A stretch of DNA of 64,000 bases from Desulfobulbaceae bacterium (GTDB lineage: Bacteria > Desulfobacterota > Desulfobulbia > Desulfobulbales > SURF-16). Shown one piece after another: positions 5,215 through 23,072 of the stretch (positions are counted from its first letter, which is position 1; every line of letters begins with the position of its first letter). Position numbers and translations under genes: made by a program. The stretch lies in assembly GCA_020444175.1 (NCBI GenBank), contig JAHLLM010000004.1, forward strand, positions 13,399 to 77,398. Direction: 5' to 3'. The notes below the pieces were generated by a model. That model searched no databases and had not been told where the DNA came from. It saw nothing but the letters and a program-made list of their open reading frames with translations.

Positions 5215-6045
5215 ATGGAACGGATAAAAAAGTGCGTGGCCCATTGTGCCCACTCGCCTCTGTCTGAGATTCTATCAACAGCCGGGCAGGCAGCCCTTGA
5301 GGCGGGGAAGATTCTCCGAAATCTCTACTCCCAACCCCATCAGGTGCGATATAAGGGTGAAATTGACCTGGTCACCGAAGCCGATGTTGCCGCGGAAAAA
5401 AAGATTCTTGATATTTTTTCCCGCAGGTGCCCCGACGTCGCTATTCTGGCAGAGGAGTCCCATGCTGATTACACGAGCGTGCCGAAAGGAGCTGTCTGGA
5501 TTATTGACCCTCTGGACGGGACCACCAATTTTGCCCACAATTTTCCCTGGTTTGCCGTGTCTATCGGCTATGCGGAAAAGGGAGAAGGCCTTGCCGGTGT
5601 TATTTATGCTCCAATGCTTGATGAATTGTTCTGTGCCTGTAAAGGGTATGGAGCCTGGCTGAACGGAGAAAAGATAACGGTTTCCGGAACAGGCGATTTG
5701 GGGAAATCTCTTTTTGCCACGGGTTTTCCCTATGATGTTCGCCAAAAGCCTGAATCGGTTATTGCTGCCCTTGAGAAGGTGTTGACCCGAAGTCAGGGCA
5801 TCAGGAGAGCAGGTGCTGCAGCTCTTGATCTGGCCTATGTTGCCTGCGGCAGGCTTGATGGCTTCTGGGAGATTAAATTGAAGCCGTGGGATACGGCAGC
5901 CGGCTACCTGCTGGTGCAGGAAGCCGGTGGCAGGGTCACTGATTTCAGGGGTCGGACATATTCGCCTTTTGATGGCGAAATCTGTGCTTCAAACGCACTC
6001 GTTCATGACGGGATGACGGATATTCTCAAGGAATTTTCTTTTTAG
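5215..6045 (+). CDS. suhB: Inositol monophosphatase family protein
   Basis: 276 aa. IMPase signatures: AEESH, WIIDPLDGTTNFAH, WDTAAG. Confidence 0.85.
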   Translation: MERIKKCVAHCAHSPLSEILSTAGQAALEAGKILRNLYSQPHQVRYKGEIDLVTEADVAAEKKILDIFSRRCPDVAILAEESHADYTSVPKGAVWIIDPLDGTTNFAHNFPWFAVSIGYAEKGEGLAGVIYAPMLDELFCACKGYGAWLNGEKITVSGTGDLGKSLFATGFPYDVRQKPESVIAALEKVLTRSQGIRRAGAAALDLAYVACGRLDGFWEIKLKPWDTAAGYLLVQEAGGRVTDFRGRTYSPFDGEICASNALVHDGMTDILKEFSF

Positions 6046-6769
6046 TCCTGGCTGATTTTTTTCTGGAATACCCTGTTAAGCCAGCGAGGCCTGTGCCGAA
6101 AAGCAGCATGGTTCCCGGCTCCGGAATTGGGTTAGTCGGTCCCGGTCCCGGCTCGTCGCTTGTAATGACAAGGGTGCTTGACAGATAAATTGATATTCCG
6201 CTTAAATCGTCATGTTGTTCCAGGTAGAAACCGGAATTTGGGGCAGACTCGGAAAGGGTTAGTGTAATAACCGCTGTTTCAAAGTCGTCCAGGGAAAAAT
6301 GCCAGCCCATACCCATTGACACGTCGTCTTGAGTTATATTCTCATCATCATTGAAGATTGTTTTGTCAAGGTCTCCGCCTAATAGGTGACTGTGTATATC
6401 TCCTGTTTTGTCGCCGTCATAAATAGCCCAGTAACCCGGCTCATCAATCTCCCAGGTCTGGCCAGCCTCAGCAGTCCCATATGCGCTTCCCGATTCGTTA
6501 AAGAAGGAATTTACACTAGTTTCAATATCATGGTCAAAGACTGCCAGAAAGGTGTGGGCGCCGAACTCACTCGTTTGCCATGTCAGTGTGCCGAGGCCTG
6601 TCTCGGATATGAACCCCGTATTGTCAACAGTTCCCATATAAGGTTTGTAAAAGTATGCCCCGTCAATGTTAAATCCCCAGTCAAAGAGATCTATCTGCGT
6701 GGCTGAAACATTCTGACAGCCAAATGCCAGGATAAGAAATGTCAGCGTGCATGCTTTACATGTTTTCAT
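6026..6769 (-). CDS. PEP-CTERM sorting-domain protein (exosortase substrate), N-terminal domain unknown
   Basis: 247 aa with a signal peptide. C-terminus is PIPEPGTMLLFGTGLAGLTGYSRKK (PEP motif, TM helix, basic tail). Lies 18 bp downstream of the preceding gene. Its 3' end overlaps suhB convergently by 20 bp. Confidence 0.85.
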   Translation of the reverse strand: MKTCKACTLTFLILAFGCQNVSATQIDLFDWGFNIDGAYFYKPYMGTVDNTGFISETGLGTLTWQTSEFGAHTFLAVFDHDIETSVNSFFNESGSAYGTAEAGQTWEIDEPGYWAIYDGDKTGDIHSHLLGGDLDKTIFNDDENITQDDVSMGMGWHFSLDDFETAVITLTLSESAPNSGFYLEQHDDLSGISIYLSSTLVITSDEPGPGPTNPIPEPGTMLLFGTGLAGLTGYSRKKSARTKKKIP

Positions 6770-7519: not shown

Positions 7520-10500
7520 TTAAAATGGTGCCAATTGATTTAAGTAGTTGAATGCCTCGGTGACGCCGTTCTCAAAACCACCGCCTGAAGCCTCTTTGGT
7601 GAACTCTCTCTCGCCTGACAGATTTCGCCACGTTGCCGTCAGTTTAAAGCCGACCTTGAATGTTACTCCGCCTTTGAAGGCTTCCGGTATGCCGCCGAGC
7701 AGTTTCAGTTGGCTCTTTTCGGCAATATAGCTTGCCCCACCCAGTTTTGTTTTAACCTTGTTTATTTCTATTTTTGTTTTCTCCATGGCAAGATACCAGT
7801 GAATGCCTATGTCATAACCCTCGCCGATTAATTCCATGTAGCTTGCCAGAAATTGTATATTCGTGGTGCTGAAACCATGCAGAAAACCTGCAAGTGCGGC
7901 CGATACCTCTTTGCCGCTTGGATAAGACAACACAACGACATAGCTTACAAGCGCTGTTTGTCCACTGGGGTCGGTATAAGTGACCGGATTATTCATGACA
8001 TAGGAGTATAGGTTGAGTGACTGGGGCAGGGTCAGGTCGCCCTGCTGCCCGTCACGTTGCAGGAAGCGTCCCAGGGCAGGATCGTAGGCCCTTGTTCTGT
8101 AATGGTAAAGACCGCTTTCCGCATCATACTCCCGACCGGTATATGTGAATGTGTTGACAAGTCCTGCTCCGCTGAAAGAGAAACTGCCGGAGTTTACAAG
8201 AAGCTGTCCCCAGGCGTCATATCCATAACGTTGCACCACATTCCCCGAGGAGTCGGTCAAGGCCACGACATTGCCCTGGCCATCCGCATGGTAAAAATAG
8301 ACGGAGCCGCCCTGCAGTGTCATCAGTGGTTCGTCCACCCTGTTGCTGTAAACATAATGGGCGGCCAGGGTGCCGTTGAGGTACTCGCTGAGAATGTGCT
8401 GGTTATCGTAGAGGTATTCACGGCTGTCGGCGGCAACAGTTTTTGCTGTGCGGCGTCCCATGGAGTCGTATTGATAGGTTGCCGTGAGTGTGCCGGAGCT
8501 GAACCCGGTCAGACGGGATGCACTGTCGTAGGAGTAGGCCGGGCCACCCGTAAAGGTCGTCATGTTGCCGTTTGGATCATAACTGTATGTGGTCGCGCCT
8601 CTTTGGTGCAGGGAGTTGTCTGTATTATAGGTTTCCGGGGTCCCTGCCGTAAAGCGGTTGCCGACGTTGTCATAGCTGAAGGTTTGGCTCGTTGTTCCCA
8701 GGTTCGTTGAGGAGATGTCTTCCCCGGTAAGCCGGTTCAGATTGTCAAGGGCCCAGCTGATGGAACCATCCGCTAGTGTGACGCCGGTGCGGTTGCCAAG
8801 GCTGTCGATTGTGTAGTCGTAGCTTGCTATTACTGTATCTGCGGCATCTTTTATAAGGATTGAATCAAGTCGGCCAAGGGAGTCATAGCCATAGGTGGTG
8901 GTCACGCCGTTTGAATAGGCAGCCGTCTGCCGCTGACCGGCAGCATTATAGCTAAAAGTGACCTGGTTGCCTCCTGCCTGCACTGAGTGCAGCCTGGAAG
9001 CGGCATCATAGGTGTAGATTATTTCCGTGCCGTCCGCAGCCGTTACTTTGGTGCGATTACCGGCTGTATCATACTCGTAGGCCACTGTGCGTCCATTGGG
9101 GTCAGTGACGCTTGCCAGCCAGCCGAAAGCGTTGTAAGTCATGTTGGTGATGAGGTCACTGCCGCCGTAGTTTTCCACCATCTGGGTGATCCGGCTGTTT
9201 TCGTCATATGTATAACTTACAGTGCCTTCGGGTTTGGTCTCTCTGACCAGACGTCCCATGTCGTCTCTGTCAAAAGTGATGCTCGCCCCGTCAGCCAATG
9301 TTTTGCCTGAGATATAGCCCTCTGCGTCATAGCTGAATCCTGAGCTGTTGCCCAATGGATCGGTGCGGTTGACCATCCTGCCGAGCCCGTCATAGTCATA
9401 AAGGCTTGGAACGCCATTGGCATTGGTAAGAGTTGTCATCTTGTTGATGTTGTTGTAGTCGAGCATGACCACCCCGGCCTGAGAATCGGTCACCTGGGAG
9501 AGGTTGCCGGAACCTGTGTAGGCGAAGCTGTCCGTGCCGTTGGCGTCGGTCCGCGATGTTATCTGGCCTTCATGATTGGAATTCAGGCTGAAAAGGATTT
9601 CGCCATCATGGTCTGTGACGGTTGCCAGATTGCCCATACCATCATAGGTAAAGCTTGTACGTTGACCGAGGCCGTCAATGATTGCCGTTTTCCTGCCCAG
9701 AGTGTCATACTCGTAAGAGGTTGTGAGACCGGCAGCATCAGTCATGCTGGTCTGGTCGCCAAAGGCATTGTAGGCTGAGTGGCTTATCTGGCCATTGGCA
9801 TTTGTATGGCTGAGACGGTTTCCGGAACCATCGTATGTCCAGCTTTCTGAAAAGAGGACAGTGCCGCCGCTGTTTTTCTTCTCTTTTGTCAGCGGGTTGC
9901 CGTCAGCGTCATACGTATAAAGAGTCTGGTCTCCCAGGGGATTCGTAATGCTGGTGACCTGGTTAAGTGAGTTATAGGTAAAGGTTCTGGTGAGCGCAGA
10001 GCCAGGATCAGCACTGTCTGTATAGCGGGTTTCGCTCAGCTTGTTGCCGTTGCCGTCATAGGTGAAGGTTATTTTCCTTCCACTTGGGTCGACACGTTCA
10101 AGCAGGTTGCCGTTGGCGTCATAAGAAAAAGAGGTAAGTCCGACAAGGGAATCGTTTTCCTCCACCACATTAGCCATGGAGTCGTAGGTATAGGTAATGC
10201 TGTGTCCGTTTGGATCGGTAACCGTCTCCTGACGTGCCGGCGGATTATAGCTGTATTCTGTCCGGTTCCCCAGGCTGTCAAGGTGGGCACTGAGTCGCCC
10301 GTCCGGGTAATATTCATTTCTGAGTGGCAAATGGCCATCCGGGGCCTGGATTTCCAGGAGATAATGGTCGCTGCCATAGACATATGTGGTTACATTGCCG
10401 TTCTGGTCGGTAAACTGAACGAGATCTCCGGCACCATCATAGGTGTAGGTCGTCTGCTGGCCGGCAGGATCGATAATGTTTGTGATACGACCTTGACCGT

Positions 10501-13500
10501 CTCTGGCAAATGTCACGTTTCGGCCTGTATTGGTGGTGATACCGTCAGTGGTAATTTCCATGAAATTACCGATTCTGTCTTCTATTCTATTGATCCCGAA
10601 GTCTTGATTAATGGTATATGTCAAGCCTGTTTTTGTACGCAGGACATAGGTTTCGGGATTGAAGATACCGGCTGAGTCGAGGAAGAAATACCAGTCTCCT
10701 CCTGAATAAACAACGGAGTGATTTCCGATAAAGTCAAGTTCATCATAGACCCCGGGAGGGGCTGTGAACTTGGCTTCGTACATCGGGAACCACGGTGAAA
10801 TTTGTACTGGAGTAAAGGCAAAGGCCACTCTGCGTCCGTCCGGCAAAGTGATAAAGACATTATGGCTCGCATCTTCACGGATATCAGCATTTTTCATATC
10901 CAGGGTCCAGCCGGCTCCAAAATCATCCTGGATGTTACGACTGCTGTCGTAGCTGCGTGTGAGGCTCAGGTCCATGCCCATGAGCGGCATGGCCAGATCT
11001 TCGTAGCTGATCACAAATCGTCCAAGCTGCAGAGGATCATTGACCTGACAATCAATCCAGGAGGATGAACTCTGGTTGGCATCATAGGCCGTGAGGCGGA
11101 AGCGGTAAAAGTCGTTGGTAAGTGTTCCTGCGTCAATCTGGCCGAGCAGGCCGCCTGTTACCGAGGTGTTGCCGCTTGCAATCTCGGTCCACTGATCACT
11201 GCCCACAGGGGCATATTCAAGAAGCCAGGAGGTCAGGTGGTCATCGCTTGCTGTTCCCTCAATGGCAATGACGCCGCTGATGATGTCTCCGGCTGCAGGT
11301 GTTGCAAAGGAAACCTGCGGCGGAACTTCATCTTCAGCTGCAGCCGGATCATAGACAATGACTGTGGCGCTATCTGTTGCGTTTCCTCCGAAGCCGTCAT
11401 CAGCAGTCAACATGACTGTGTAGCTGCCCGAGGTATCAAAGGTCAGATCCACTGTTGTTCCTGTATATGTATCACCGTCGTACGTCCAGGTATAGGTCGG
11501 CGTATCGCCGTCAGGATCAGCACCGTTGGCGGTTAAGGTGATCGGTGTTGCTATGGCCCCTTGATATGGTCCGCCTGCATCAATTACCGGATCGTTATTT
11601 GGAGGATGGGCAATGCTTAGGAGCTGCGTCGTTGTATTGGTGGCGCCTCTGTCATCGGTTACCGTCAGGCTTACAGTGTAGTCGCCGGGATCTGCATAGG
11701 CATGACTGACCATGGTGCCGGTGGTGGAGAGGCCGTCACCGAAATCCCATTGCCAGTTGGTTAGGGGCAGACTTTCCGGATCGCTTGATACGCTGCCGTC
11801 AAAGGTCAGTGTCTGCCATTTGAGGAGTTCTCCGGTTACGCTGAATGCTGCCGTCGGAGGCTGATTGGGTGGAGTTACATTGACCGTTGCGCCGGCTGAG
11901 TCCAGTCCGCCTCTACCGTCATCAACGGACAGAGAAACGTTAAAGAGTCCTTCACTGGTGTAAACATGGCTGACAGTCACGCCGTATTCGGGTGGGGTGC
12001 TGTCGCCGAAGTTCCAGGTATAGGTGAGCGGATCGTTGTCCGCATCATAGGACGCGCTGCCGTCAAAGGTGATTGCCGTATTAACCGCACCCGTATACGG
12101 ACCACCAGGATCGGCTATGGGAGGCGTGTTGGGCAGTTCCACCTGACAGGAGGTCTCCGCATGACCGGTGGCTCCCCGGTCGTCGGTAACATACAGGGTA
12201 ACTGTATATATGCCATCTGCCGTATAGGTGTGGCTTACCTGAATGCCATGCTCCTCGCTGCCGTCACCAAAGACCCAGTGATAATCAACAATCAGGTCTC
12301 CTTCTGGATCATAGGAGCCGCTGGCGTCAAAATTTATCTCTTCATTGATCAAAGAACTGTAGGGGCCGTCATGCACTGCAATCGGCGCGTCATTCGGCCG
12401 TGGGCTCACTTCGATCTGGAAGAACTGCGTGGCGGATATGCCGTCACCGTCGGTAACACGGATCATCACGTCATGAACTCCCCATTGGCTGCGCAATGGA
12501 GTCCAGATAATAAGCCCGGAGGCAGGATCGATCGTCATGCCGTCCGGTGCCAAATCAAGCAGAAAGGTCAAAGCGCTTCCCTCCGGGTCACTTGCTTCGA
12601 CATCATATTCGTAGAGTATTTCTTCAACAGCTTCTGTTATCGGAGTACTTGATATAACCGGGGGAAGGTTGATGATTCGTCCCTGTGAATAGACATAGAT
12701 CGGATAGGAAATCAGCTCTTCGCCGTTAATTTCCGTGAAAATGCGGTACCAGTAATCTTTGTCAAGCTCGATTCCCGTAACCTGCATACAATCTGTGCGG
12801 CCAAGTTCGTCAGCGATAAATGCCGCATCAATGCCATCAACATCAAGGTCTTCGTCAAAATCGCCCAGGCAGGGGAAGGTGGCAGGGTCGCAGTCAATAC
12901 GACCGAGCTCAAGGGCAAAAAGTGCTTCATCATCAGCATCAACGACAGCGTCGTCATTGAGGTCGGAAGCGCAGGTATTGGCTAGTTCGCCAACGTTTTC
13001 TGCCAGATTGTGGTCAAGGAAAGATGCATAGGTAGAGGGGCTTGTGCCTATTTGCCTGAAAGCTTCATTGGGGCCGATTTCCGAACGGAAAATACGATAG
13101 GCAGTGGCACCGGCCAGTGGAGACCAGAGAAGCTGGCATTTCGTATATTTGGGTCTGGCTGAAAGCCCGGTAACGCCGATATTGTAGACAGCGACCTCGC
13201 CATAATCCACATTGGTCAGGTCCGGCTGAGCGGATTGCGGAAACACGGTTGCTGTATTGTCGGTGACGCGCAGGGCGATATCAAAGCGGCCGGATGAGGT
13301 AAAGGCCGGGAGTATGGCTGTCTCCCCGGTGGCTTCTGCAAAATCGTATGGGGCAATAAAATCAGACTCCCAGTCCCAGGCGGTGATTGAGTCGCCTTCA
13401 GGCTCATCGATATCATAGGAGCCGGAGCCGTCTACCTGGACTTCTTCCCCAACGGCAGTCAGATAAGGGCCGCTCATCACTGCAGTCGGCGGATGGGGAG

Positions 13501-15700
13501 GGATAGTAACATGCATGGTGAGACTTGAGGTGTCGAAACGCACCGGTGTCGAGTTGTCAAGAACCTTGAGACTCACTGTGTAGTCCTGCAACTGGCCGAA
13601 GGCATGGTCAACTGTCACTCCCAAAGCATCGGGGTGAACAAAGTCAACTCCGTCCGAGGCGTCAAAATCCCACAGGTAATCAACTATTTCTTTGGCTGGA
13701 TCGACGTGGTAGGAGCCCGAGGCGTCAAAGTGAATGAGCTGCCCCACAGCGCCGGGATTTGGTGCGGCATTGATAATTGCCACCGGAGGTTTTTCAAACA
13801 GGGTACGGGTCAGGATGATGACGTCCCAGGCCGTGGCCGTCCGTTTTCCTAACCAGCTATAATTATTCCAGGATCCATCAGAGTTTTGATGGTTGACCAG
13901 ATGGCGCGCCATTCCATAGGTTTCATCTCCGTACCAGTCGAGTCCCGTTGCTGAAAGATGGGTAACCTCTTGGGGGAGAGCGAGCCGCAAGGCTTTGGTG
14001 AACGCATAATAACCATATGTGAATTGTCCATTCCATTGGCCGAGAAATGAACTCCAGGAGTTGGCTAACCAGTTTTCAGCTGTCTGCCAGCGCGAGTCGC
14101 TGGTGGTGAAACCGTCAAAGGCCAGCTGCACCATTCCTGAAGGTGTCGTTGCCCAGCCGTTTCCGCTTCCCGTATAGCCAAAACCTGTGCCATTATAGCT
14201 GTTAATCAACCATGAGTTGTTTCTGTCTTTTACCCATTGTGGAACCGTGCAGCCAAAGTTATTTTCAGCCGGTATCATGCCGATGGCCCCCCATTGGGCT
14301 GCGGAGTTATCAGGCCAGTCTTCCCAGTTGTAACGCCAGCCGCCATAGGTGTTGTGTTGTCCCCAGGCGTACATGTCAACCATATCCTGGACAATATCCT
14401 GATACCGGCGGCCAAGGACATTGGCTCCCCCGGACTGGGCCATGGCATCAGGTGAGCCGGTAGCCACAAAGGCGTCCATCACAGCACCAGTTTCATAGAT
14501 TGAGCGACCGCTGGACCAGCTGAGCCCGATGCCATTGCTATTTGTATCAGGATTGGCTGGGTTGCCGCTGCTGTCCGTACCCTGGATCGTCATGTTGGTT
14601 GAACCCAGGCCGCTCAGCAGATAATCGATGCCTCCCAGCACTGCTCCCACATATGGGTCTTCGTTTGAATCTCCTGTTTCATGGTGGCCGTTGATCTCAA
14701 AGGCCTGCACTGCCGATGCTGTTGAATTGCCATAGTAGCCCGTATAGTCGGATGCAGGATAATTCTGCCAGCGAACACTTGGGTTTGGATTCCAGTAGAG
14801 TTCGGCTCTGGCTCCACTTCCAGCTTCATAGTACTCCATGACGATGTCATGTCTGCCGGCACTCATATACAAGAATGAAGTGTAATTCCACGTAGATGCC
14901 TGATTTTCCCAGTCATTTATAAGAAGTTGGTTGTCGATAAAGAGCCGCACTCCATCATCGGTACGGGTTGCAAATTGGTAGTAGCCATTTTCTTTGATGT
15001 CAATTTCTCCACTCCAACGGATACTGAAAGAGTCTACCCCCATTCCACTGATTGGAGCTCCTACCCAGTAAAAATTTACCTGGGAATCAACACGACTTGT
15101 GAAAAAATCGTTAAAATTGTAGTTGTCGTAATATTCACCTAGCAAACCCGGATCTCCATCTGGTGTGAAGAGAGACGTGGTTGGAATGATTTGTTGGGAA
15201 CCTGAAAACTGCTTGTTCGTATAGAGCCACCACAAACCGTCGTCAATGGACTTGTTGACTTCCACGTCCAGGTTTTGGGCACGGATGAGGATACGGTAGT
15301 CGTCCGAGGAGGATTCTCCGGCAGTATCGGTAACGTGCAGGCGAGCGATAATAAGCGTACCCGGGTCAGCAGAATAGGTATGGGTTGCTGCAAGGTTGTC
15401 GGCATTGGTGATGGTCTGTACGGGGGAAACATCGCCATCGCCAAATTCCCAGTAATATGTGCCGCCGAGATGGTCACCGTCTGCATCCCTGGCAATGCCC
15501 TTCAAAATAGTTGGTTCCCCGGACCAAGTCTCATGGGGAACTAGAAGATCAGTTGGTACCTGTGGAACGGTAATAACCTGGGGAGGAGCTGCTGAAGCAA
15601 TGCTCGGGCCGATTATTAAAGAAGTAAAAAAGAATCCGAAATGGACAGTGAGTAAAAAGAAAAATGCTTTAACAAAATAATCACTTTTCTGTTGATTCAT
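7520..15700 (-). CDS. Giant RHS/YD-repeat surface protein with PKD, PA14, terpene-cyclase-like toroid and dockerin-like modules and a variable C-terminal domain
   Basis: The track ORF is 2744 aa (to 15754). The likely start is ATG 15700, preceded by GGGGGAGAG, giving MNQQKSDYF plus a hydrophobic anchor.
Modules in order:
- PKD-like module.
- PA14 (GLLGEYYDNYNF...AELYW, about 14795-15150).
- Prenyltransferase/squalene-cyclase-like repeats (GGWRYNWEDWPDNSAAQWG, HQNSDGSW).
- Dockerin-like Ca loops (DLNDDAVVDADD, DFDEDLDVDGID).
- Five tandem PKD domains.
- Dozens of YD repeats (YxYDxxGN).
- RHS core end YDPALGRFLQRDG...NLYSYVMNNPVTYTDPSG. Confidence 0.9.
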   Translation of the reverse strand: MNQQKSDYFVKAFFFLLTVHFGFFFTSLIIGPSIASAAPPQVITVPQVPTDLLVPHETWSGEPTILKGIARDADGDHLGGTYYWEFGDGDVSPVQTITNADNLAATHTYSADPGTLIIARLHVTDTAGESSSDDYRILIRAQNLDVEVNKSIDDGLWWLYTNKQFSGSQQIIPTTSLFTPDGDPGLLGEYYDNYNFNDFFTSRVDSQVNFYWVGAPISGMGVDSFSIRWSGEIDIKENGYYQFATRTDDGVRLFIDNQLLINDWENQASTWNYTSFLYMSAGRHDIVMEYYEAGSGARAELYWNPNPSVRWQNYPASDYTGYYGNSTASAVQAFEINGHHETGDSNEDPYVGAVLGGIDYLLSGLGSTNMTIQGTDSSGNPANPDTNSNGIGLSWSSGRSIYETGAVMDAFVATGSPDAMAQSGGANVLGRRYQDIVQDMVDMYAWGQHNTYGGWRYNWEDWPDNSAAQWGAIGMIPAENNFGCTVPQWVKDRNNSWLINSYNGTGFGYTGSGNGWATTPSGMVQLAFDGFTTSDSRWQTAENWLANSWSSFLGQWNGQFTYGYYAFTKALRLALPQEVTHLSATGLDWYGDETYGMARHLVNHQNSDGSWNNYSWLGKRTATAWDVIILTRTLFEKPPVAIINAAPNPGAVGQLIHFDASGSYHVDPAKEIVDYLWDFDASDGVDFVHPDALGVTVDHAFGQLQDYTVSLKVLDNSTPVRFDTSSLTMHVTIPPHPPTAVMSGPYLTAVGEEVQVDGSGSYDIDEPEGDSITAWDWESDFIAPYDFAEATGETAILPAFTSSGRFDIALRVTDNTATVFPQSAQPDLTNVDYGEVAVYNIGVTGLSARPKYTKCQLLWSPLAGATAYRIFRSEIGPNEAFRQIGTSPSTYASFLDHNLAENVGELANTCASDLNDDAVVDADDEALFALELGRIDCDPATFPCLGDFDEDLDVDGIDAAFIADELGRTDCMQVTGIELDKDYWYRIFTEINGEELISYPIYVYSQGRIINLPPVISSTPITEAVEEILYEYDVEASDPEGSALTFLLDLAPDGMTIDPASGLIIWTPLRSQWGVHDVMIRVTDGDGISATQFFQIEVSPRPNDAPIAVHDGPYSSLINEEINFDASGSYDPEGDLIVDYHWVFGDGSEEHGIQVSHTYTADGIYTVTLYVTDDRGATGHAETSCQVELPNTPPIADPGGPYTGAVNTAITFDGSASYDADNDPLTYTWNFGDSTPPEYGVTVSHVYTSEGLFNVSLSVDDGRGGLDSAGATVNVTPPNQPPTAAFSVTGELLKWQTLTFDGSVSSDPESLPLTNWQWDFGDGLSTTGTMVSHAYADPGDYTVSLTVTDDRGATNTTTQLLSIAHPPNNDPVIDAGGPYQGAIATPITLTANGADPDGDTPTYTWTYDGDTYTGTTVDLTFDTSGSYTVMLTADDGFGGNATDSATVIVYDPAAAEDEVPPQVSFATPAAGDIISGVIAIEGTASDDHLTSWLLEYAPVGSDQWTEIASGNTSVTGGLLGQIDAGTLTNDFYRFRLTAYDANQSSSSWIDCQVNDPLQLGRFVISYEDLAMPLMGMDLSLTRSYDSSRNIQDDFGAGWTLDMKNADIREDASHNVFITLPDGRRVAFAFTPVQISPWFPMYEAKFTAPPGVYDELDFIGNHSVVYSGGDWYFFLDSAGIFNPETYVLRTKTGLTYTINQDFGINRIEDRIGNFMEITTDGITTNTGRNVTFARDGQGRITNIIDPAGQQTTYTYDGAGDLVQFTDQNGNVTTYVYGSDHYLLEIQAPDGHLPLRNEYYPDGRLSAHLDSLGNRTEYSYNPPARQETVTDPNGHSITYTYDSMANVVEENDSLVGLTSFSYDANGNLLERVDPSGRKITFTYDGNGNKLSETRYTDSADPGSALTRTFTYNSLNQVTSITNPLGDQTLYTYDADGNPLTKEKKNSGGTVLFSESWTYDGSGNRLSHTNANGQISHSAYNAFGDQTSMTDAAGLTTSYEYDTLGRKTAIIDGLGQRTSFTYDGMGNLATVTDHDGEILFSLNSNHEGQITSRTDANGTDSFAYTGSGNLSQVTDSQAGVVMLDYNNINKMTTLTNANGVPSLYDYDGLGRMVNRTDPLGNSSGFSYDAEGYISGKTLADGASITFDRDDMGRLVRETKPEGTVSYTYDENSRITQMVENYGGSDLITNMTYNAFGWLASVTDPNGRTVAYEYDTAGNRTKVTAADGTEIIYTYDAASRLHSVQAGGNQVTFSYNAAGQRQTAAYSNGVTTTYGYDSLGRLDSILIKDAADTVIASYDYTIDSLGNRTGVTLADGSISWALDNLNRLTGEDISSTNLGTTSQTFSYDNVGNRFTAGTPETYNTDNSLHQRGATTYSYDPNGNMTTFTGGPAYSYDSASRLTGFSSGTLTATYQYDSMGRRTAKTVAADSREYLYDNQHILSEYLNGTLAAHYVYSNRVDEPLMTLQGGSVYFYHADGQGNVVALTDSSGNVVQRYGYDAWGQLLVNSGSFSFSGAGLVNTFTYTGREYDAESGLYHYRTRAYDPALGRFLQRDGQQGDLTLPQSLNLYSYVMNNPVTYTDPSGQTALVSYVVVLSYPSGKEVSAALAGFLHGFSTTNIQFLASYMELIGEGYDIGIHWYLAMEKTKIEINKVKTKLGGASYIAEKSQLKLLGGIPEAFKGGVTFKVGFKLTATWRNLSGEREFTKEASGGGFENGVTEAFNYLNQLAPF
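7523..7957 (-). other. C-terminal variable (putative toxin/effector) module of the RHS protein; 145 aa after the PVTYTDPSG boundary
   Basis: The sequence after the conserved RHS core-end motif is TALVSYVVVLSYPSGKEV...GVTEAFNYLNQLAPF. I recognise no catalytic motif in it. By eye it is more AT-rich than the repeat region. Confidence 0.6.
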
Positions 15701-15864
15701 CGCTCTCCCCCAAAAGCTTAATTCATCATTTAAGAACATCAGGCCGACATTCAAAAAAAATGGATATTTTTTAAAAAAAATGGTTCGTTCTACCGCTTTT
15801 TTTCAGTTTGATAATCTGAATTTGTGTAATGGATTTATGCTGTTATATAATTTTATTTACTAAA

Positions 15865-15881
15865 TGCAAAAAGCATTCCTG
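15865..15881 (-). promoter_or_regulatory. Candidate sigma-54 (-24/-12) promoter for the RHS operon
   Basis: Minus strand reads CAGGAATGCTTTTTGCA. GG and GC have the canonical 12-nt register and the -12 TTGCA is perfect, but the -24 box is weak (AGGAAT vs TGGCAC). About 165 nt upstream of ATG 15700. Confidence 0.4.
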
Positions 15882-15979
15882 CTTTCATTTTCGGCATAGG
15901 GGGTGTGTGTTTGTAATGCGTTGATATTGTTATTTGTTTTTTTGTCTCCAGAGAGATGTCGGTCTGGAATTAGAGTGTG

Positions 15980-16010
15980 ATTTCTGAAATTTCCTTTTTT
16001 CCGGAAAAAA
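15980..16010. promoter_or_regulatory. Cluster of TTTC/GAAA palindromes (candidate enhancer/operator)
   Basis: ATTTCTGAAAT (15980-15990), GAAATTTC (15986-15993) and a perfect 16-bp palindrome TTTTTTCCGGAAAAAA (15995-16010). These lie 100-130 bp upstream of the candidate sigma-54 promoter. Confidence 0.4.
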
Positions 16011-16493
16011 TTCTGTGCAGCGTTCAGGTTTTTAGATTTTAATAATAGCTTGAAATAATAGCTGAAAATGATAAGTATTATCAAGTTGTTAGTTAGGGTG
16101 CCTCTCTCATTTCCTGTAAATCGGAAATTGTTTGGTTCGAAATGGGGAGACGTGTCCAATTGTTGAATATTTCAGCAAAAAAAATTGGTAACTCTTCATC
16201 GGTGCCCCACGGACTCCGTGTTACCTGCTCCCCGCACCTGAGGCAACCAGGTACTTGCTGTCCGGAGTTAAGATCCCTTTCTGGCCATGGCTGCATTGCG
16301 GCAGAATTTGTTTGCTTTTTCATCTGATTCCAGCAGAGGGAATGCCGGTTTGGATTGCGGGGAAGATTCGAACCCTTGGGTGTCATGTTTATTGCAATAA
16401 TATCTATAGTATCTATTGCAAAAGTTTGTCTGTAGCTTTATTGAATGTTTTTAATTCGACCTCGCGAGTTCATCCAGATTCGATGGATAAATA

Positions 16494-17159
16494 TTGAATA
16501 TGACAAAGCTGTTCCTGAAAATTTTACTGGGCATGATTTTTCTGTCTCTTGTTTTTATTGTCGAGTTTGAGTTGTTTGGCCATGATTTTGAGGCTCTTTT
16601 CAATCAACAGAAATGTATTGACTGGTTTACTCAAATAAAAGCTTATGGCTGGCTTTGCGGGATTGGGTTACTGGTCGGAGATCTTGTCCTGCCCGTTCCT
16701 GCAACCGGTATCATGGCTGCCCTTGGCAATGTTTACGGTATTCTTCCGGGGGCTTTTTTCGGCATAATAGGTTCTGCGGGGGCCGGTTTTGTGGGGTATG
16801 GTGCAGCCCGCCTGCTGGGCGATAAAGGACGAAGATATCTTGCCTCGGATGAGGAGCTTGATCGTTTTCAGGTTTTCTTTGACAAATGGGGAGGCGCGGC
16901 CATTATATTGAGCCGTATCCTGCCTATTTTGCCTGAAATCATGACCATCCTTGCCGGGATTGCCCGTATGCATCCTGTCAGGTTTTCGGTTTCGCTTTTA
17001 TTAGGCACTGTTCCCACCTGTTTTCTCTTTTCCTGGATCGGGTACTCTTCCCGTTCAACGCCGGTTTTCGGTATAGTGCTGGCTATACTCATACCTGTGC
17101 TGCTCTGGCCCATTTTTTTACGATATATTTCTATAAAAAAACCAGAGAATTCCAACTGA
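16494..17159 (+). CDS. DedA-superfamily / TVP38-TMEM64 (VTT domain) membrane protein
   Basis: 221 aa polytopic membrane protein. Typical VTT-domain look: VLPVPATGIMAALG, FFDKWGGAAIILSRILPILP. Confidence 0.7.
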   Translation: MNMTKLFLKILLGMIFLSLVFIVEFELFGHDFEALFNQQKCIDWFTQIKAYGWLCGIGLLVGDLVLPVPATGIMAALGNVYGILPGAFFGIIGSAGAGFVGYGAARLLGDKGRRYLASDEELDRFQVFFDKWGGAAIILSRILPILPEIMTILAGIARMHPVRFSVSLLLGTVPTCFLFSWIGYSSRSTPVFGIVLAILIPVLLWPIFLRYISIKKPENSN

Positions 17160-17212
17160 TATGCAACTTGTTCCATTGACTTCATTTTTCTGGTTTGATA
17201 CCTTGAAGGGTA

Positions 17213-18451
17213 TTGATGAAAGAGAGTAAACCACATAAAAAAACAGGTGTCTGGCTTGTTGGAGGACTTGGCTCAATTGCCGTTACCGTCATGGTCGGTG
17301 CCCTGGGCTTCCGAAAAGGCCTTGTTCCTTCATCAGGAATGGTGACAGAGAGTGAGGCGTTTTCTCAAATTGAGTTACCTGATGTCAGTGAATTTGAATT
17401 TGGTGGCTGGGATATCCGTCAGGACACCGTTTATGCTGCAGCACAAAAAATGGTTCAGGAATGCCGGACCATTGATCCTTCACTTCTTGGAAAGATTGCC
17501 CCAGAGCTTGATGAAATAAACAGGTGGATGAAACCGGGGCTTACTCGCAATTGCGGCCAGGCCATAGAATCCCTGGCCGCGGGAAGCGCACCGGGGACGC
17601 GATCTCTTCTTGAGGAAGTAAACGAGCTGCGCAGCCATCTGCGTTCTTTTAAGGAGGAAAAGGGGCTTACTGGTCTTGTCGTTATCAATCTTGCCTCCAC
17701 CGAGCCTTCTCTTGACCTGCAAGAGCATCATGAAAGCATTGCCTTGTTTGAAGCGCGTATAGCGGAAAATAAGGCGTGTGATATCCGGGCAAGCAGTCTC
17801 TATTCGTATGCCGCTCTTCTGGAAAGATGCCCTGTAATCAACTTTACCCCGTCTCCCGGTACACTGATTCCTGCTCTGATTGACTTTGCCGGACACCAGG
17901 GACTTCCTGTTATGGGCAATGATGGAAAGACAGGAGAAACCCTGGTGAAATCGGCTCTTGCTCCCATGTTTCTTTCACGGAATCTGGAAATACTCAGTTG
18001 GGAAGGGTTTAATATCCTTGGAAACATGGATGGCGAGATTCTGAATACCTCTGAAAACCGGGCAACGAAAATTAAATCAAAGGATAAGGTTTTAAGCGGC
18101 ATCCTGGGTTATCAGCCTCATTCCAGGGTGCATATAAATTATGTGCCCTCCCTAGGCGATCAGAAAACAGCGTGGGATTTTATTCATTTTCAGGGCTTTC
18201 TCGGTGCAAAGATGTCCTTGCAGTTTACCTGGCAGGCCTATGATTCCCTGCTGGCGGCTCCTCTTGTCCTTGATCTGGTTCGCCTGGCGCAACTGGCAAA
18301 AGAGAGAGGGGAATCCGGTGTCATGCCGCATCTGGCAAGTTTTTTCAAGGCACCGCTTGGCACGGATTGTTTTGATCATCATCAGCAGACAGATATGCTG
18401 GTGCAATATATTTCACAGGTTACAAGTGATGGAGGAGAATCATGGGAGTGA
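17213..18451 (+). CDS. ino1: myo-Inositol-1-phosphate (inositol-3-phosphate) synthase
   Basis: 412 aa. N-terminal Rossmann VWLVGGLGSIA. MIPS-typical GNDGKTGETLVKSALAPMF and FNILGNMDGEIL. Confidence 0.85.
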   Translation: MMKESKPHKKTGVWLVGGLGSIAVTVMVGALGFRKGLVPSSGMVTESEAFSQIELPDVSEFEFGGWDIRQDTVYAAAQKMVQECRTIDPSLLGKIAPELDEINRWMKPGLTRNCGQAIESLAAGSAPGTRSLLEEVNELRSHLRSFKEEKGLTGLVVINLASTEPSLDLQEHHESIALFEARIAENKACDIRASSLYSYAALLERCPVINFTPSPGTLIPALIDFAGHQGLPVMGNDGKTGETLVKSALAPMFLSRNLEILSWEGFNILGNMDGEILNTSENRATKIKSKDKVLSGILGYQPHSRVHINYVPSLGDQKTAWDFIHFQGFLGAKMSLQFTWQAYDSLLAAPLVLDLVRLAQLAKERGESGVMPHLASFFKAPLGTDCFDHHQQTDMLVQYISQVTSDGGESWE

Positions 18452-19629
18452 GAATTTTCATTTGTCTTGTTGTCGGTTGTTTGCTGTCTTTTGGCAATAC
18501 CGCCATGGGTGAAGAGCTAACAGTCAAGCCACAAGCGCGGGCCAGCGATCTTTCTTTAAAAAAAGAGGTGAGCCATGCCCTGGAAAAAGGGCTTGGCTGG
18601 CTTGAAAAAAATCAAAATTCAGGCGGCTACTGGTCGCAGCCGGAGCATCCTGCTTTGACGGCTTTGGTTCTCACCGCTTTCATGGGCGAACCTGCCGGCA
18701 GAATCAAGTCTCATCCTCCGGAGTTTGTGACAAACGGTTATAAGTACCTGTTGTCCACAGTTCAGGGTGATGGTGGGATCTATGTCACGGATCTGGCCAA
18801 TTACAATACCTCCATTTCCATTATGGCTTTGCTGATGGCTGGGAATCCAAAATTTGATCCAGTCATCAGAAAGGCAAGAAATTTTACCGTGGGCCTGCAG
18901 AGTGATTTTGATGAAAAGGGCTCAATTGATAATCCCTATGACGGTGGCATTGGCTATGGCGGCCGTTATAAACATTCCGACCTTTCCAATACCATGTTTG
19001 CCTTGGAAGCCATTCATTACACAAAACATCTGGCTGATAGTGGTGATGCAGCTAACGAACCGCTTGCTGAGCTCAACTGGTCTGCAGCCAGACGGTTTAT
19101 TGAACGCTGTCAAAATCTTCCGTCCACTAATGATCAACCCTGGGCCAGCGATGATCCTCAAAACAGGGGCGGTTTTGTCTATTTCCCTGGAGACAGCAAG
19201 GCTGGAGAGGTTGAGCTCCCCTCAGGGAAAAAGGCGCTGCGTTCCTACGGAAGTATCAGTTATGCCGGACTGCTGAGTTATATTTACGCGGATCTGGAAA
19301 AAAATGATAAACGTGTCCAGGCGGTTTTTGATTGGCTGCAGAAGAATTACACACTGGATGAAAATCCCGGTATGGGGGCGCAAGGACTCTTCTATTATTA
19401 TCACACCATGGCAAAAGCCCTTGCTGCCATGGGAGCCGAGGCTGATGAGCTGGAACTGGCTGACGGGAAGAAAGTCAACTGGAGACGCGATTTGGCCTTT
19501 AAGCTGCTCAATGTGCAAAATGCGGATGGCTTCTGGATGAATGAGAACGGTCGCTGGTGGGAGCGCGATCCTGTTCTGGTAACGGCCTATGCCGTGATTA
19601 CCCTGGAAGTTCTTTATCGCGGCCTGTAA
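18442..19629 (+). CDS. Secreted prenyltransferase/squalene-cyclase-repeat (alpha/alpha-toroid, terpene cyclase-like) protein
   Basis: 395 aa with a signal peptide (IFICLVVGCLLSFGNTAMG). Repeated QxxxGGW-type motifs: KNQNSGGYW, VQGDGGIY, VQNADGFW. GGAGGAG RBS. The start overlaps the MIPS stop by 10 nt. Confidence 0.7.
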   Translation: MGVRIFICLVVGCLLSFGNTAMGEELTVKPQARASDLSLKKEVSHALEKGLGWLEKNQNSGGYWSQPEHPALTALVLTAFMGEPAGRIKSHPPEFVTNGYKYLLSTVQGDGGIYVTDLANYNTSISIMALLMAGNPKFDPVIRKARNFTVGLQSDFDEKGSIDNPYDGGIGYGGRYKHSDLSNTMFALEAIHYTKHLADSGDAANEPLAELNWSAARRFIERCQNLPSTNDQPWASDDPQNRGGFVYFPGDSKAGEVELPSGKKALRSYGSISYAGLLSYIYADLEKNDKRVQAVFDWLQKNYTLDENPGMGAQGLFYYYHTMAKALAAMGAEADELELADGKKVNWRRDLAFKLLNVQNADGFWMNENGRWWERDPVLVTAYAVITLEVLYRGL

Positions 19630-19631
19630 GG

Positions 19632-20474
19632 GTGAGGCTCTCTTTCAGTACCAACGCCTTTACTCGCTTTACCGTTTGTGAGGCAGTGGGGAAAATTGGA
19701 GATCTTGGCTATCAGGGAGTGGAAATTCTGGCGGATGTTCCCCATCTTTATGCTGATAGCGTTGGGGAAGAAGAAGTGCGTGAACTCAAAGAAGCAGTAT
19801 CTCGCTCCCATCTCAAAGTGGCAAATATCAATACAAATACGGCGGCAGGGTACTATGCTGGAGCATTCTGGGAGCCTCTTTTTGAACCTTCGCTGGCCAA
19901 CCCGGATGAGATGGCAAGAAAATGGCGCATTGATTACACAAAAAAGGCGATTGATTTTGCGGTTTTTCTTGAATCGCCAGGGATAAGTATCACTTCCGGC
20001 AGGCCGGTTCCCGGTTGCGATCCTGAATATGGACTTGGTTTGCTGCAGGATTCTCTTGTTCAATTACTCGACTATGCCGGCCAGCGAGGGGTTAGAATAG
20101 GTATAGAGTATGAACCAGGACTCCTCATCGAGTCCTGCCGTGAGTTGGCGGAATTTCTTCAAGTGCTTGATAGCCCAATGCTTGGGGCAAACCTGGATCT
20201 CGGTCATAGTTATCTGCTTGGTGAAGATGTGGCTGATGTTCTGCGCCAACTTGACGGGAAGGTTTTTCATATCCATCTGGAAGATATGAAGGGCAAAAAA
20301 CATTTTCATCTTATTCCTGGACTTGGTAGTATGAATTTTGAGCATTTGCTCACAACGTTAAAGGAAAAATATGACGGATTTGTCACGGTGGAGCTGTACA
20401 CCTATCCCCAATCTCCGGAAGAGGCGGCCCGCAGGGCAATGTCCTATTTGCTCCAGTTCCCGGTCTGGTCATAA
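19632..20474 (+). CDS. Xylose-isomerase-like TIM-barrel protein (sugar phosphate isomerase/epimerase; EboE-like), copy 1
   Basis: I prefer the GTG start at 19632 (in frame with track start 19557). It gives RLSFSTNAFTRF...GYQGVEILAD, colinear with the paralog start at 21287 (MKFAFSSNAFRKY...GYEGIEIMAD). It sits 3 nt after the previous stop. Confidence 0.75.
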   Translation: MRLSFSTNAFTRFTVCEAVGKIGDLGYQGVEILADVPHLYADSVGEEEVRELKEAVSRSHLKVANINTNTAAGYYAGAFWEPLFEPSLANPDEMARKWRIDYTKKAIDFAVFLESPGISITSGRPVPGCDPEYGLGLLQDSLVQLLDYAGQRGVRIGIEYEPGLLIESCRELAEFLQVLDSPMLGANLDLGHSYLLGEDVADVLRQLDGKVFHIHLEDMKGKKHFHLIPGLGSMNFEHLLTTLKEKYDGFVTVELYTYPQSPEEAARRAMSYLLQFPVWS

Positions 20475-20486
20475 GAGGAGAAGACT

Positions 20487-21287
20487 ATGCGCATGATTGA
20501 ACCCCATATCCATACAATGGTGAGAACGACTGATGATTATTACAATATGGCGGTGGCGGGAATTGTCGCCTGTGTAGAACCTTCTTTCTGGTCAGGTATG
20601 GATCGTCGTTCTGTTGCCTGTTTTGAGGATTACTGGGAGCATATGCTTACTGTGGAAACCGAACGGGCCAGGAAATACGGTATTAAGCATTACGTCATGC
20701 TCAGCCTGAACCCGAAGGAGGCCAGGAATGAAATTGCCCATGATGTGGTTGATGCAATGGAAAAGTTTCTTGATCATCCAGCCGTGGTGGGGATTGGCGA
20801 AATAGGCTTTGACCTGATTACCGAGCAGGAGGAGGAAATTTTCCGTCGGCAGCTGCAAATGGGCAATGCGCGTAAAATGCCTATCTGTATCCACTCACCC
20901 CATCAGAATAAACTGAAGGGGATTGAGCGTATTATAGAGATCATCGAAGATGAGGGAGTGGCCCAGGAACGTATTGTCATTGATCATAATACGGAAGAGA
21001 CCATTGAGCTCAGCCTGCAGACCCGATGCTGGATGGGGATGACCGTGTATTATGTCACCAAATTAAGTGCCGAAAGGGCGGTTGCCATCATTGGCCGCTA
21101 CGGTACAGACAGGATGATTGTGAACGGTTCAGCGGACTGGGGCTATTCCGATCCACTGGCTGTTCCCAAGGTGGCTATGTTGATGCGTAAAAGCGGAGAT
21201 TTTCCAGAGAGTTCCATTCAGAAAATCGTCTTTGAAAATCCTTATAATTTCCTGAATCATTCAGAAAATTTTGAGCTCGATACCTGA
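20487..21287 (+). CDS. TatD-family metal-dependent hydrolase (EboB-like)
   Basis: 266 aa. TatD/amidohydrolase ligand pattern: EPHIH, GEIGFD, ICIHSPH, VIDH. Confidence 0.7.
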   Translation: MRMIEPHIHTMVRTTDDYYNMAVAGIVACVEPSFWSGMDRRSVACFEDYWEHMLTVETERARKYGIKHYVMLSLNPKEARNEIAHDVVDAMEKFLDHPAVVGIGEIGFDLITEQEEEIFRRQLQMGNARKMPICIHSPHQNKLKGIERIIEIIEDEGVAQERIVIDHNTEETIELSLQTRCWMGMTVYYVTKLSAERAVAIIGRYGTDRMIVNGSADWGYSDPLAVPKVAMLMRKSGDFPESSIQKIVFENPYNFLNHSENFELDT

Positions 21288-22105: not shown

Positions 22106-22180
22106 CTGCAGAAATAAGAATTCAGGATTCTTTTCCTCCATCTTTGGGACCAATATGTCGGCGCTGGAGCAGAAAATAAT

Positions 22181-23068: not shown

Positions 23069-23072
23069 TGAT

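Follow-up and report, generated by a model that had tools for sequence, protein, structure and literature searches.

A Giant RHS Protein with a PA14-Bearing, Terpenoid-Cyclase-Like Toroid Head in a Desulfobulbaceae Bacterium: Architecture, Relatives and Genomic Context

Introduction

WapA of Bacillus subtilis is a Sec-dependent RHS/YD polymorphic toxin, and in both the Rhs effectors of type VI secretion systems (T6SS; Tse5/RhsP1, RhsA) and the TcB-TcC cocoons of Tc toxins an RHS cage holds a C-terminal cargo that is released autoproteolytically. Classical Rhs systems almost always include an immunity gene. The present study concerns a gene for a 2,726-aa RHS protein in a 64,000-nucleotide stretch of a Desulfobulbaceae bacterium genome (GenBank assembly GCA_020444175.1, contig JAHLLM010000004.1, positions 13,399 to 77,398); this whole stretch is referred to as the window, and all window coordinates are counted from its first letter. 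Among the described systems, the closest concept is that of the bacterial teneurin-like proteins (TLPs), which are exported by Sec and combine diverse N-terminal adhesion domains with a YD shell and polymorphic C-terminal domains of ~15 kDa; they are almost always accompanied by a downstream immunity gene, and their "superfold" includes an NHL beta-propeller between plug and shell (bioRxiv 10.1101/2025.11.11.687626).

Like WapA and the TLPs, the protein analyzed here has a putative signal peptide, adhesion or anchoring domains at the front, a YD/RHS shell in which an aspartyl-protease release motif is present, and, at the C-terminus, a hypervariable module (CT) of only ~15 kDa. Unlike them, it has no cell-wall-binding or lipoprotein anchor and no immunity gene immediately downstream, and its head belongs to a terpenoid-cyclase-like toroid family that is unreported for them in the literature searched. 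No NHL/beta-propeller family was detected between plug and shell by Pfam sequence profiles at E<=0.1, which separates the protein from the TLP "superfold" definition. With the T6SS effectors and Tc toxins it shares the Rhs_assc_core motif and a DUF6531-type plug, but it carries no PAAR, VgrG-binding or TcB-type module, is predicted to be Sec-exported, has an adhesin-like N-terminal region of ~1,550 aa, and is not accompanied by a cognate immunity gene. RHS cages are known mostly from T6SS, Tc and WapA systems, and this gene stands for a large unstudied class.

We favor the reading that the gene encodes a Sec-exported RHS protein of polymorphic-toxin type, equipped with a modular binding head, a function that we infer and to which we assign a probability of roughly 45%.

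Results and Discussion

Integrity and Domain Order of the RHS Gene

The open reading frame (ORF) occupies 7520..15754 on the minus strand and, read from the ATG at 15700, encodes 2,726 aa without interruption; a Shine-Dalgarno-like GGGGGAGAG lies 5' of this ATG. The initial annotation, made from the sequence alone, had proposed a single gene for ~2,700 aa at 7520-15700, and the gene proved to be intact. A pseudogene or an assembly chimera was ruled out, since the ORF is unbroken and two orthologues from metagenome-assembled genomes (MAGs) labelled Deltaproteobacteria are colinear with it over the entire length (L011, 55% identity in one high-scoring segment pair covering aa 20-2726; L008, 51%). 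An exact-sequence lookup of the protein gave no match.

The domain order, of which we are nearly certain, is signal peptide, PKD-like domain, toroid with a PA14 insert, two PKD domains, FN3 with a dockerin-type insert, He_PIG, four PKD domains, a Big_7-like domain, RHS shell and CT (Table 1). The only transmembrane (TM)-like segment of the protein is N-terminal (Kyte-Doolittle 19-residue maximum of 2.1 at aa 12), where a strongly hydrophobic stretch at aa 9-34 is followed by SIASA/APP. Among the homologues, the signal peptides are of the ordinary AxA type, and the mature proteins share the conserved N-terminus AAPPxVxCVP. The restriction of hydrophobicity to the N-terminus, together with the invariance of the dockerin cysteines described below, would fit an extracytoplasmic location.

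In the shell, Pfam and NCBIfam profiles matched DUF6531 at aa 1559-1627 (E 1.4e-7), RHS_repeat in 18 stretches (E 1.8e-99), YD_repeat_2x (E 2.8e-72) and, at aa 2494-2581, Rhs_assc_core TIGR03696 (E 7.2e-22), with a partial match to NF041261 RHS_core. The aspartyl-protease/cleavage motif of the core (DPxxGRF ... PxxxxDPxG) reads YDPALGRFLQRD...NNPVTYTDPSGQ (YDPALGRF...NNPVTYTDPSGQ). The RHS shell and C-terminal module of the initial annotation were thus recovered, the latter as a 145-aa segment. Pfam places seven PKD_4 stretches in the protein. The first PKD-like domain is kept throughout the head family, and in the region of the two PKD-type domains behind the toroid the family profile matches collagenase PKD structures. 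Of the five PKD domains that had been proposed after the Ig-like module, four stand, and the fifth is a Big_7-like Ig domain.

Table 1. Features of the RHS protein and of neighboring genes in the window.
Feature	Residues (aa)	Position	Strand	Evidence
Start codon and putative signal peptide/anchor (...SIASA/APP)	1-36	15593..15700	-	Hydropathy and homologue N-termini
PKD-like domain 1	~45-140	15281..15568	-	PKD_4 E 1e-5, 25.9 bits, cut-off 27
Toroid helix 1, VEVNKSIDDGLWWLY	~141-165	15206..15280	-	Helix H5-22 of AlphaFold model; near-invariant in 64 homologues
PA14 inserted in loop after toroid helix 1	~175-306	14783..15178	-	Pfam and Foldseek
Toroid body, (alpha/alpha), terpenoid-cyclase/prenyltransferase-like	~307-640	13781..14782	-	AlphaFold, Foldseek, hhalign
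Two PKD-type domains	641-738 and 739-858	13127..13780	-	PKD_4 31.1 bits; 17.4 bits (weak)
FN3-like domain, split by dockerin	~859-1008	12677..13126	-	Family profile
Dockerin-type module in FN3 loop (~75 aa)	~903-977	12770..12994	-	Orthologue scores, PDB profile search
He_PIG Ig-like domain (Pfam match 1013-1099)	1011-1099	12404..12670	-	Pfam E 2.2e-9
Four tandem PKD domains	1100-1452	11345..12403	-	PKD_4 79.4, 76.9, 79.5 and 50.7 bits, scanned singly
Big_7-like Ig domain before shell	1453-1548	11057..11344	-	Big_7 22 bits, sub-threshold (cut-off 24.1)
RHS/YD shell: DUF6531 plug, RHS repeats, Rhs-associated core	~1555-2581	7958..11038	-	Pfam/NCBIfam
CT module, 145 aa, unannotated family	2582-2726	7523..7957	-	HMMER relatives
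YdjY-like secreted protein, 243 aa, abuts RHS stop codon		6788..7519	-	49% identical to gene after L002 orthologue
PEP-CTERM protein, 247 aa, same direction as RHS gene		6026..6769	-	PEP-CTERM motif E 1e-6
VTT/DedA		16494-17159	+	
myo-Inositol-1-phosphate synthase		17213-18451	+	
tor395, 395-aa secreted single-domain toroid, homologous to head toroid		18442..19629	+	hhalign, SQHop_cyclase_C
Xylose-isomerase-like TIM barrel		19557-20474	+	
TatD-like (EboB)		20487-21287	+	
Second xylose-isomerase-like TIM barrel		21287-22105	+	
UbiA (EboC)		22181-23068	+	
PF01663 phosphodiesterase (EboF)		23073-24404	+	

An AT-rich intergenic region of ~790 bp (15701-16493) separates the RHS gene from the divergent VTT/ebo-side genes, and promoter-like hexamers are found within it on the minus strand at 16084-16055.

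A Toroid Head Interrupted by PA14

The PA14 assignment of the initial annotation was upheld by both sequence and structure: Pfam matched aa 183-305 far above threshold (78.8 bits with the cut-off at 24, E 4.7e-22), and the best Foldseek match was the PA14 domain of RsgI (6qe7; 42% identity, rmsd 1.4 A, E 9e-11), followed by PA14 domains of GH3/GH31 proteins and adhesins. The domain resembles the PA14 of clostridial RsgI biomass sensors, GH3/GH31 glycosidases, and RTX and yeast adhesins. PA14 is often inserted in a host domain, as in the GH3 beta-glucosidase 3ac0; unlike in other PA14 carriers, the host domain here is a terpenoid-cyclase-like toroid.

The position of the insertion was defined by comparing homologues. 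In those without PA14, the first helix VEVNKAIDDGLWWLY (VEVNxAIDxGLWWLY) continues straight into the rest of the toroid, whereas ~140 residues of PA14 are interposed at the end of this helix in the window protein and in homologues P0001, P0003, P0023 and P0077. PA14 is also present at the same site in loci L003, L005, L008-L011 and L013, and is missing at exactly this site in P0004, P0005, P0121 and P0125. An AlphaFold model of aa 140-660, built on a 64-sequence alignment (pLDDT 90.9, pTM 0.85), consists of helix 1, an all-beta domain and ~11 more helices. Because the PA14-less homologues join helix 1 directly to the toroid and the predicted structure places the beta domain at that point, PA14 is a true insertion between toroid helices 1 and 2, in agreement with the initial annotation, which had already separated the first helix from the remainder of the ring.

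Foldseek searches with the PA14-containing model returned mainly PA14 structures; therefore, a separate toroid-only model was prepared for aa 306-650 (pLDDT 91.6, pTM 0.91, ~12 helices). All structures that it matched were terpenoid cyclases, prenyltransferases or thioester domains (TEDs), with E values of 9e-4 and weaker, TM ~0.5, and Foldseek probabilities of 0.97-1.0 across the top 10. They included human oxidosqualene cyclase (OSC, 1w6j), squalene-hopene cyclase (SHC, 8paj and 1sqc), the beta subunit of farnesyltransferase (FTase-beta, 1d8d) and C4dg (1hzf), and further MstE, drimenyl-diphosphate (PP) synthase and alpha2-macroglobulin. Pfam recognized no family in aa 306-650, and the toroid contains a QW/prenyltransferase-repeat-like motif, LVNHQNSDGSW.

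A second line of support comes from tor395, the secreted toroid encoded at 18442-19629, in which the initial annotation had seen the same fold. Aligned with hhalign, the head-toroid and tor395 families matched with 97.7% probability (E 2e-12) over 301 columns including helix 1. The tor395 protein itself scored 25.8 bits on SQHop_cyclase_C, just under the cut-off of 26.1, and its family profile (13 sequences) matched SHC 3sqc_A with E 1.6e-10. By these profile comparisons, the head toroid and tor395 are homologous, and the sequence-level bridge to squalene-hopene cyclase runs via tor395. Since this bridge agrees with the model and its Foldseek matches, the terpene-cyclase-like toroid of the initial annotation holds.

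The predicted (alpha/alpha) toroid is shared with SHC, OSC, FTase-beta, MstE, drimenyl-PP synthase, C3d/C4dg and the TED of alpha2-macroglobulin. Unlike the members of this superfamily, it stands as the one toroid of a multidomain protein predicted to be extracellular, and it is marked by invariant residues of its own (D439, D442, Q448, W455, Y457, D464-N465-S466, Q469 and W470). A canonical class II cyclase was ruled out by the missing DxDD motif, as there is no D.DD anywhere in aa 141-650, and a thioester domain was ruled out because no CxEQ/CGEQ motif occurs in the whole protein; the single toroid Cys (FGCTVPQW) is not kept in P0056. That the head binds glycans or isoprenoids is a guess from the predicted folds.

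The homologue search retrieved at least 195 toroid relatives, most of them secreted proteins of ~800 aa with the order PKD, toroid, PKD, PKD, FN3. With tblastn, the toroid also weakly matched the SurE gene (47216-47521, E 0.001), probably by chance; the region 46832-48468 on the minus strand holds this SurE gene next to a PEP-mutase-family gene.

A Dockerin-Type Module within FN3

In the region of the FN3-like domain, the family profile matches the FN3 structures 3mpc_A (E 1.5e-12) and 5g56; Pfam run on the window copy alone gave no match. In P0121 and P0005 the two halves of this domain (...STYSTF[IL]DYNV / DYWYRI...) are separated by only 7-10 residues, with no dockerin segment, so the dockerin-type module of the window protein is an insertion in FN3. 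Thus, the two dockerin-type Ca loops of the initial annotation stand, as orthologous copies pass Dockerin_1, but the module is a ~75-aa insert inside FN3 and not the free-standing linker that had been proposed.

The insert is an internal duplication of 28-aa copies that are 50% identical by direct reading, each bracketed by Cys. Loop 1 reads D913-x-N915-x-D917-xxx-D921-xx-D924 and loop 2 D947-x-D949-x-D951-xxx-D955-xx-D958; as in type I dockerins, which have two tandem Ca2+-loop-plus-helix segments, D or N occupies positions 1, 3, 5, 9 and 12 of both, and this pattern is kept in all five orthologues. Each loop is followed by an amphipathic helix ending in ELGRxDC. The four Cys of the insert are invariant in five orthologous copies and make up half of the eight in the entire protein, a pattern that points to disulfides and to an extracytoplasmic location.

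On Dockerin_1, the orthologous inserts of L008, L010, L011 and L016, which are 54-60% identical to the window copy, reached 25.5-36.7 bits against the cut-off of 22.9. A phmmer search of the PDB with the window dockerin retrieved dockerins exclusively, and a five-sequence profile gave 14 PDB matches, 12 of them dockerins (best 2y3n_B, E 6.8e-6) and the other two "serine protease" chains. A word-based homologue search with the insert found none; its relatives came from the GTDB loci instead. Thrombospondin type 3 repeats were considered for the Ca loops and rejected, as TSP_3 reached an E of only ~0.03, well below Dockerin_1. From these profile scores, the insert is judged a genuine but divergent dockerin-type module. 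Unlike cellulosomal dockerins, it sits in an FN3 loop rather than at the C-terminus, has each segment bracketed by a conserved Cys pair, and is carried by MAGs labelled Deltaproteobacteria instead of by a cellulolytic Firmicute. The three assignments on which the initial annotation depended (PA14, toroid and dockerin) therefore all survived profile or structure tests.

Distribution of the Head Family

Among GTDB species representatives, 232 stretches encode a toroid relative, and 78 of these loci were examined; the following counts refer to these 78. RHS repeats follow the toroid in the same stop-free frame in 37 loci and in another frame in two; the ORF ends without RHS in 23, which are largely head-only forms of ~800 aa, and is cut by contig ends in 16. 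The RHS-fused genes encode proteins of ~2,500-5,200 aa, and their hosts include MAGs labelled Deltaproteobacteria/Desulfobacterales, Verrucomicrobiota and Planctomycetota, among others. Genes of the head family are also present in Desulfobacter curvatus DSM 3379 and Geobacter sp. OR-1 (L045 and L063), which are cultivable.

The inserted modules are distributed unevenly. PA14, dockerin and RHS occur together in L008, L010 and L011; PA14 without dockerin in L003, L005 and L009, the ORF of L003 being broken at the head-shell junction; and dockerin without PA14 in L016. L013 is a 1.7-kb contig with PA14 and no RHS region on it, and the full-length orthologue P0121/L002 (50-69% identical) has neither module. 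On this distribution, sequence comparison identifies the head scaffold as old and widespread and PA14 and dockerin as lineage-specific grafts. With PA14 nested in a loop of the toroid and, independently, dockerin in one of FN3, the protein illustrates how binding modules can be grafted onto a fixed scaffold.

Toroid-type heads on RHS proteins were not described in the literature searched. The combination had been called unusual, which is correct for characterized RHS toxins but not for genomes, where it is common: in nearly half of the loci (37/78), a terpenoid-cyclase-like ring for which Pfam has no model precedes an RHS cage, and the loci checked showed no apparent cognate immunity gene. The window protein thus belongs to a large uncharacterized class rather than being a one-off oddity.

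The C-Terminal Module

The CT had no Pfam or PADLOC match and no close word-based homologue, and PADLOC likewise found nothing in the two proteins encoded downstream. When the CT was used in a full HMMER scan, 22 representative proteins were retrieved, half of which (11/22) are 1,113-3,695 aa long and match at their C-terminus. Pfam scans of four of them identified each as an RHS protein, the heads being of toroid, FG-GAP or beta-propeller type; another four can be aligned over the RHS shell, and the remainder are short entries. Close shell relatives (L005, L009 and others) bear unrelated CTs. As this CT family is common to RHS proteins with different heads while related shells carry unrelated CTs, the CT polymorphism is, by these comparisons, the pattern of polymorphic toxins. 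The CT alignment contains conserved GF[LM]HGF, RT and GGF motifs, and the window CT is not TM-like (Kyte-Doolittle maximum 1.0).

This polymorphism bears directly on an unlikely reading in which the protein would be a non-toxic giant surface adhesin or matrix protein, similar to teneurins, that mediates cohesion between cells or between cells and extracellular polymeric substances in a PEP-CTERM/exosortase biofilm context. The RHS shell would then be structural, PA14, toroid and dockerin would provide multivalent binding sites, and the CT would be a retained plug and no weapon. The abundance of adhesin-type modules and the ~800-aa head-only forms agree with such a role, as do the lack of both a cognate immunity gene and a known toxin domain among the CTs tested, and the PEP-CTERM protein beside the head gene in 20 of the 78 loci. 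However, CTs that are swapped between related shells and common to unrelated heads are the signature of polymorphic toxins, not of a structural plug, and the aspartyl-protease release motif is conserved. An HExxH metalloprotease motif in the CT of L015 also speaks against a plug.

Other CTs of the class were inspected in 12 loci (L004, L012, L017, L025, L028, L037, L042, L043, L047, L053, L058 and L064), taken as the C-terminal 180-335 aa of the toroid-RHS ORFs. Most class CTs, represented by these 12 loci from L004 to L064, are Gly/Ala-rich and strongly hydrophobic, with TM-like helices right after the DPxG site; six of these 12 hydrophobic CTs were scanned and had no Pfam match. In the CT of L015, the metalloprotease-like motif reads HELGH.

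The Gene Following the CT

The 243-aa ORF that abuts the RHS stop codon has a predicted signal peptide and is assigned to the periplasmic proteins of the YdjY family, and its counterpart after the L002 orthologue carries Pfam YdjY PF27149; a PDB sequence search with the YdjY-like protein gave no match. This protein was ruled out as the cognate immunity factor, as it occurs beside tor395 in many loci without this CT and is absent after the same CT in L001, L008, L011, L029 and L039. The gene after this CT is YdjY-like in the window and L002, an EboF-like phosphodiesterase in L008 and L011, and another giant gene in L001, L029 and L039.

A classical interbacterial, contact-dependent Rhs toxin, with a head that recognizes a receptor on the competitor and an immunity gene located elsewhere or overlooked, is on these data quite improbable: across the seven loci with this CT family the next gene is of three types, none of them CT-specific, and it is with tor395, and not with the CT, that the abutting YdjY-like gene is conserved. 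The RHS core, plug and release motif, the polymorphic CT, the small TPR-like ORF that immediately follows the RHS gene in L006, and giant toroid/RHS genes in tandem arrays are the points in its favor.

In L006, the 119-aa TPR-like ORF at 18630-18989 directly follows the toroid-RHS gene and is a possible immunity candidate for the CT of that locus, which is the only one examined with a small ORF in this position. In the tandem arrays (L001, L029, L039, L052 and L065), one RHS gene stops shortly before another giant toroid gene begins, for example at 1-492 and 1541-10089 in L001. The upstream array gene has the CT family of the window in L001, L029 and L039, and no CT match in L052 and L065. In L001 the head and the RHS part do not share a frame, owing to frameshifts near 4020 and 4900 that are probably assembly errors.

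A Layered Model for the Favored Reading

In the polymorphic-toxin reading that we favor, the protein would be built in three layers. The head (~1,000 aa) would serve as the ligand-binding or anchoring end; its arrangement also exists in free-standing form, as secreted ~800-aa proteins in many phyla, and in this lineage two modules have been grafted into it, a lectin-type PA14 behind helix 1 and, within FN3, a dockerin-type double Ca2+ loop predicted to be braced by disulfides. The Ig/PKD stalk (He_PIG, four PKD and Big_7-like Ig) would hold the head apart from the shell. The RHS cage, closed by the DUF6531 plug, would enclose the 145-aa CT, which the aspartyl-protease motif (YDPALGRF ... DPSGQ/T) would free inside the shell by autoproteolysis. 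In this scheme the protein would also be exported across the outer membrane, PA14 would bind a glycan, the toroid would bind either a protein partner or a ligand of hydrophobic or isoprenoid type, the dockerin would dock in a Ca2+-dependent manner, and the CT would be toxic. Because no cognate immunity gene follows, we favor either a target other than sister cells, for which unrelated bacteria and eukaryotic grazers are examples, or a cargo that does no harm before its delivery.

Several results weigh against this reading. Regarding the cargo, no known catalytic signature was recognized in the alignment of the window CT, none of ten CTs of the toroid-RHS class, including that of the window, matched a known toxin family in Pfam, and no conserved immunity-like gene follows this CT family in the seven loci sharing it. 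Regarding delivery, the Pfam/NCBIfam scan of the full protein contained no PAAR, VgrG-adaptor, TcB-type or other delivery module, and no outer-membrane export route for the RHS protein was identified. Regarding the head, the toroid has neither the catalytic (DxDD) nor the thioester (CxEQ) motif of its structural relatives; the window dockerin scored 10.6-11.6 bits (E 0.35-0.7) on Dockerin_1, under the cut-off of 22.9, and has Leu in place of the usual Gly in loop 2; and no cohesin match was found among the ~20 window ORFs scanned.

An ebo-Type Cluster and PEP-CTERM Proteins in the Neighborhood

The genes at 16494-24404 on the plus strand, which include tor395, are divergent from the RHS gene. 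Judged from its gene content, this region has the composition of an ebo cluster (EboB, EboC, EboE and EboF) of the eboD-less, ino1-containing type (PMC5133447; bioRxiv 10.64898/2026.05.21.724671). EboC farnesylates aromatic and cyclitol-derived substrates, and the pathway has no known dedicated cyclase (bioRxiv 10.64898/2026.05.21.724671).

Neighboring genes were counted within 10 kb of the head gene in the 78 loci by tblastn (E<1e-8), with the window proteins as the sole queries. Whole-length homologues of the 247-aa PEP-CTERM protein, which has no PDB sequence match, were found in 20 loci; in at least ten, the homologue directly precedes the head gene and shares its strand. The YdjY-like gene was found in 16, tor395 in 15 and ebo core genes in ten, and the loci with PEP-CTERM, YdjY-like, tor395 or ebo neighbors belong to several phyla. 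This linkage, which spans several phyla and lies far above chance for a 20-kb interval, suggests a joint role of the head family and the linked genes at the envelope.

The linkage also raises a distinctly unlikely alternative in which the head cooperates with the ebo pathway itself: the toroid, like tor395, would bind or process a prenylated cyclitol or meroterpenoid made by the ebo/ino cluster, and the giant protein would thereby be tethered to the producer envelope or its site of action marked. The homology between the head toroid and tor395, the position of tor395 inside the ebo/ino cluster in the window and other loci, and the co-occurrence counts in several phyla favor this connection, as do the meroterpenoid and drimenyl class II cyclases among the nearest structures and the substrate range of EboC in a pathway without a known dedicated cyclase. 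On the other hand, the head toroid has no DxDD general-acid motif, co-localization under the above search settings is seen in only about one third of the loci, and a shared envelope-related island could explain the linkage without direct interaction.

As a long shot, the toroid head, tor395, the YdjY-like protein and the PEP-CTERM protein might form an envelope module tied to the ebo/ino prenyl-cyclitol pathway, in which the rings would be catalytically stripped receptors or unconventional cyclases and the RHS cages would be addressed to, or displayed on, membranes carrying the lipid. If true, this would define a lipid-addressed class of Sec-dependent RHS proteins without immunity genes. The PEP-CTERM and ebo-type linkage offers a testable handle on both the role of ebo products at the envelope and the display or targeting of Sec-exported RHS proteins in diderms.

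Homologues of the PEP-CTERM protein adjoin both head-only and RHS-fused genes; the protein may be a physical partner or an anchor. Two more PEP-CTERM proteins are encoded in the window on the minus strand, at 24562-25263 and 28033-28587, and an IMPase gene lies at 5215-6045. The YdjY-like gene and tor395 form an adjacent conserved pair in many loci (L002, L004, L011, L020, L043, L062, L065, L072 and L075); in the window the RHS gene stands between the two, which are encoded on opposite strands, and compared with L002 this arrangement points to a local rearrangement.

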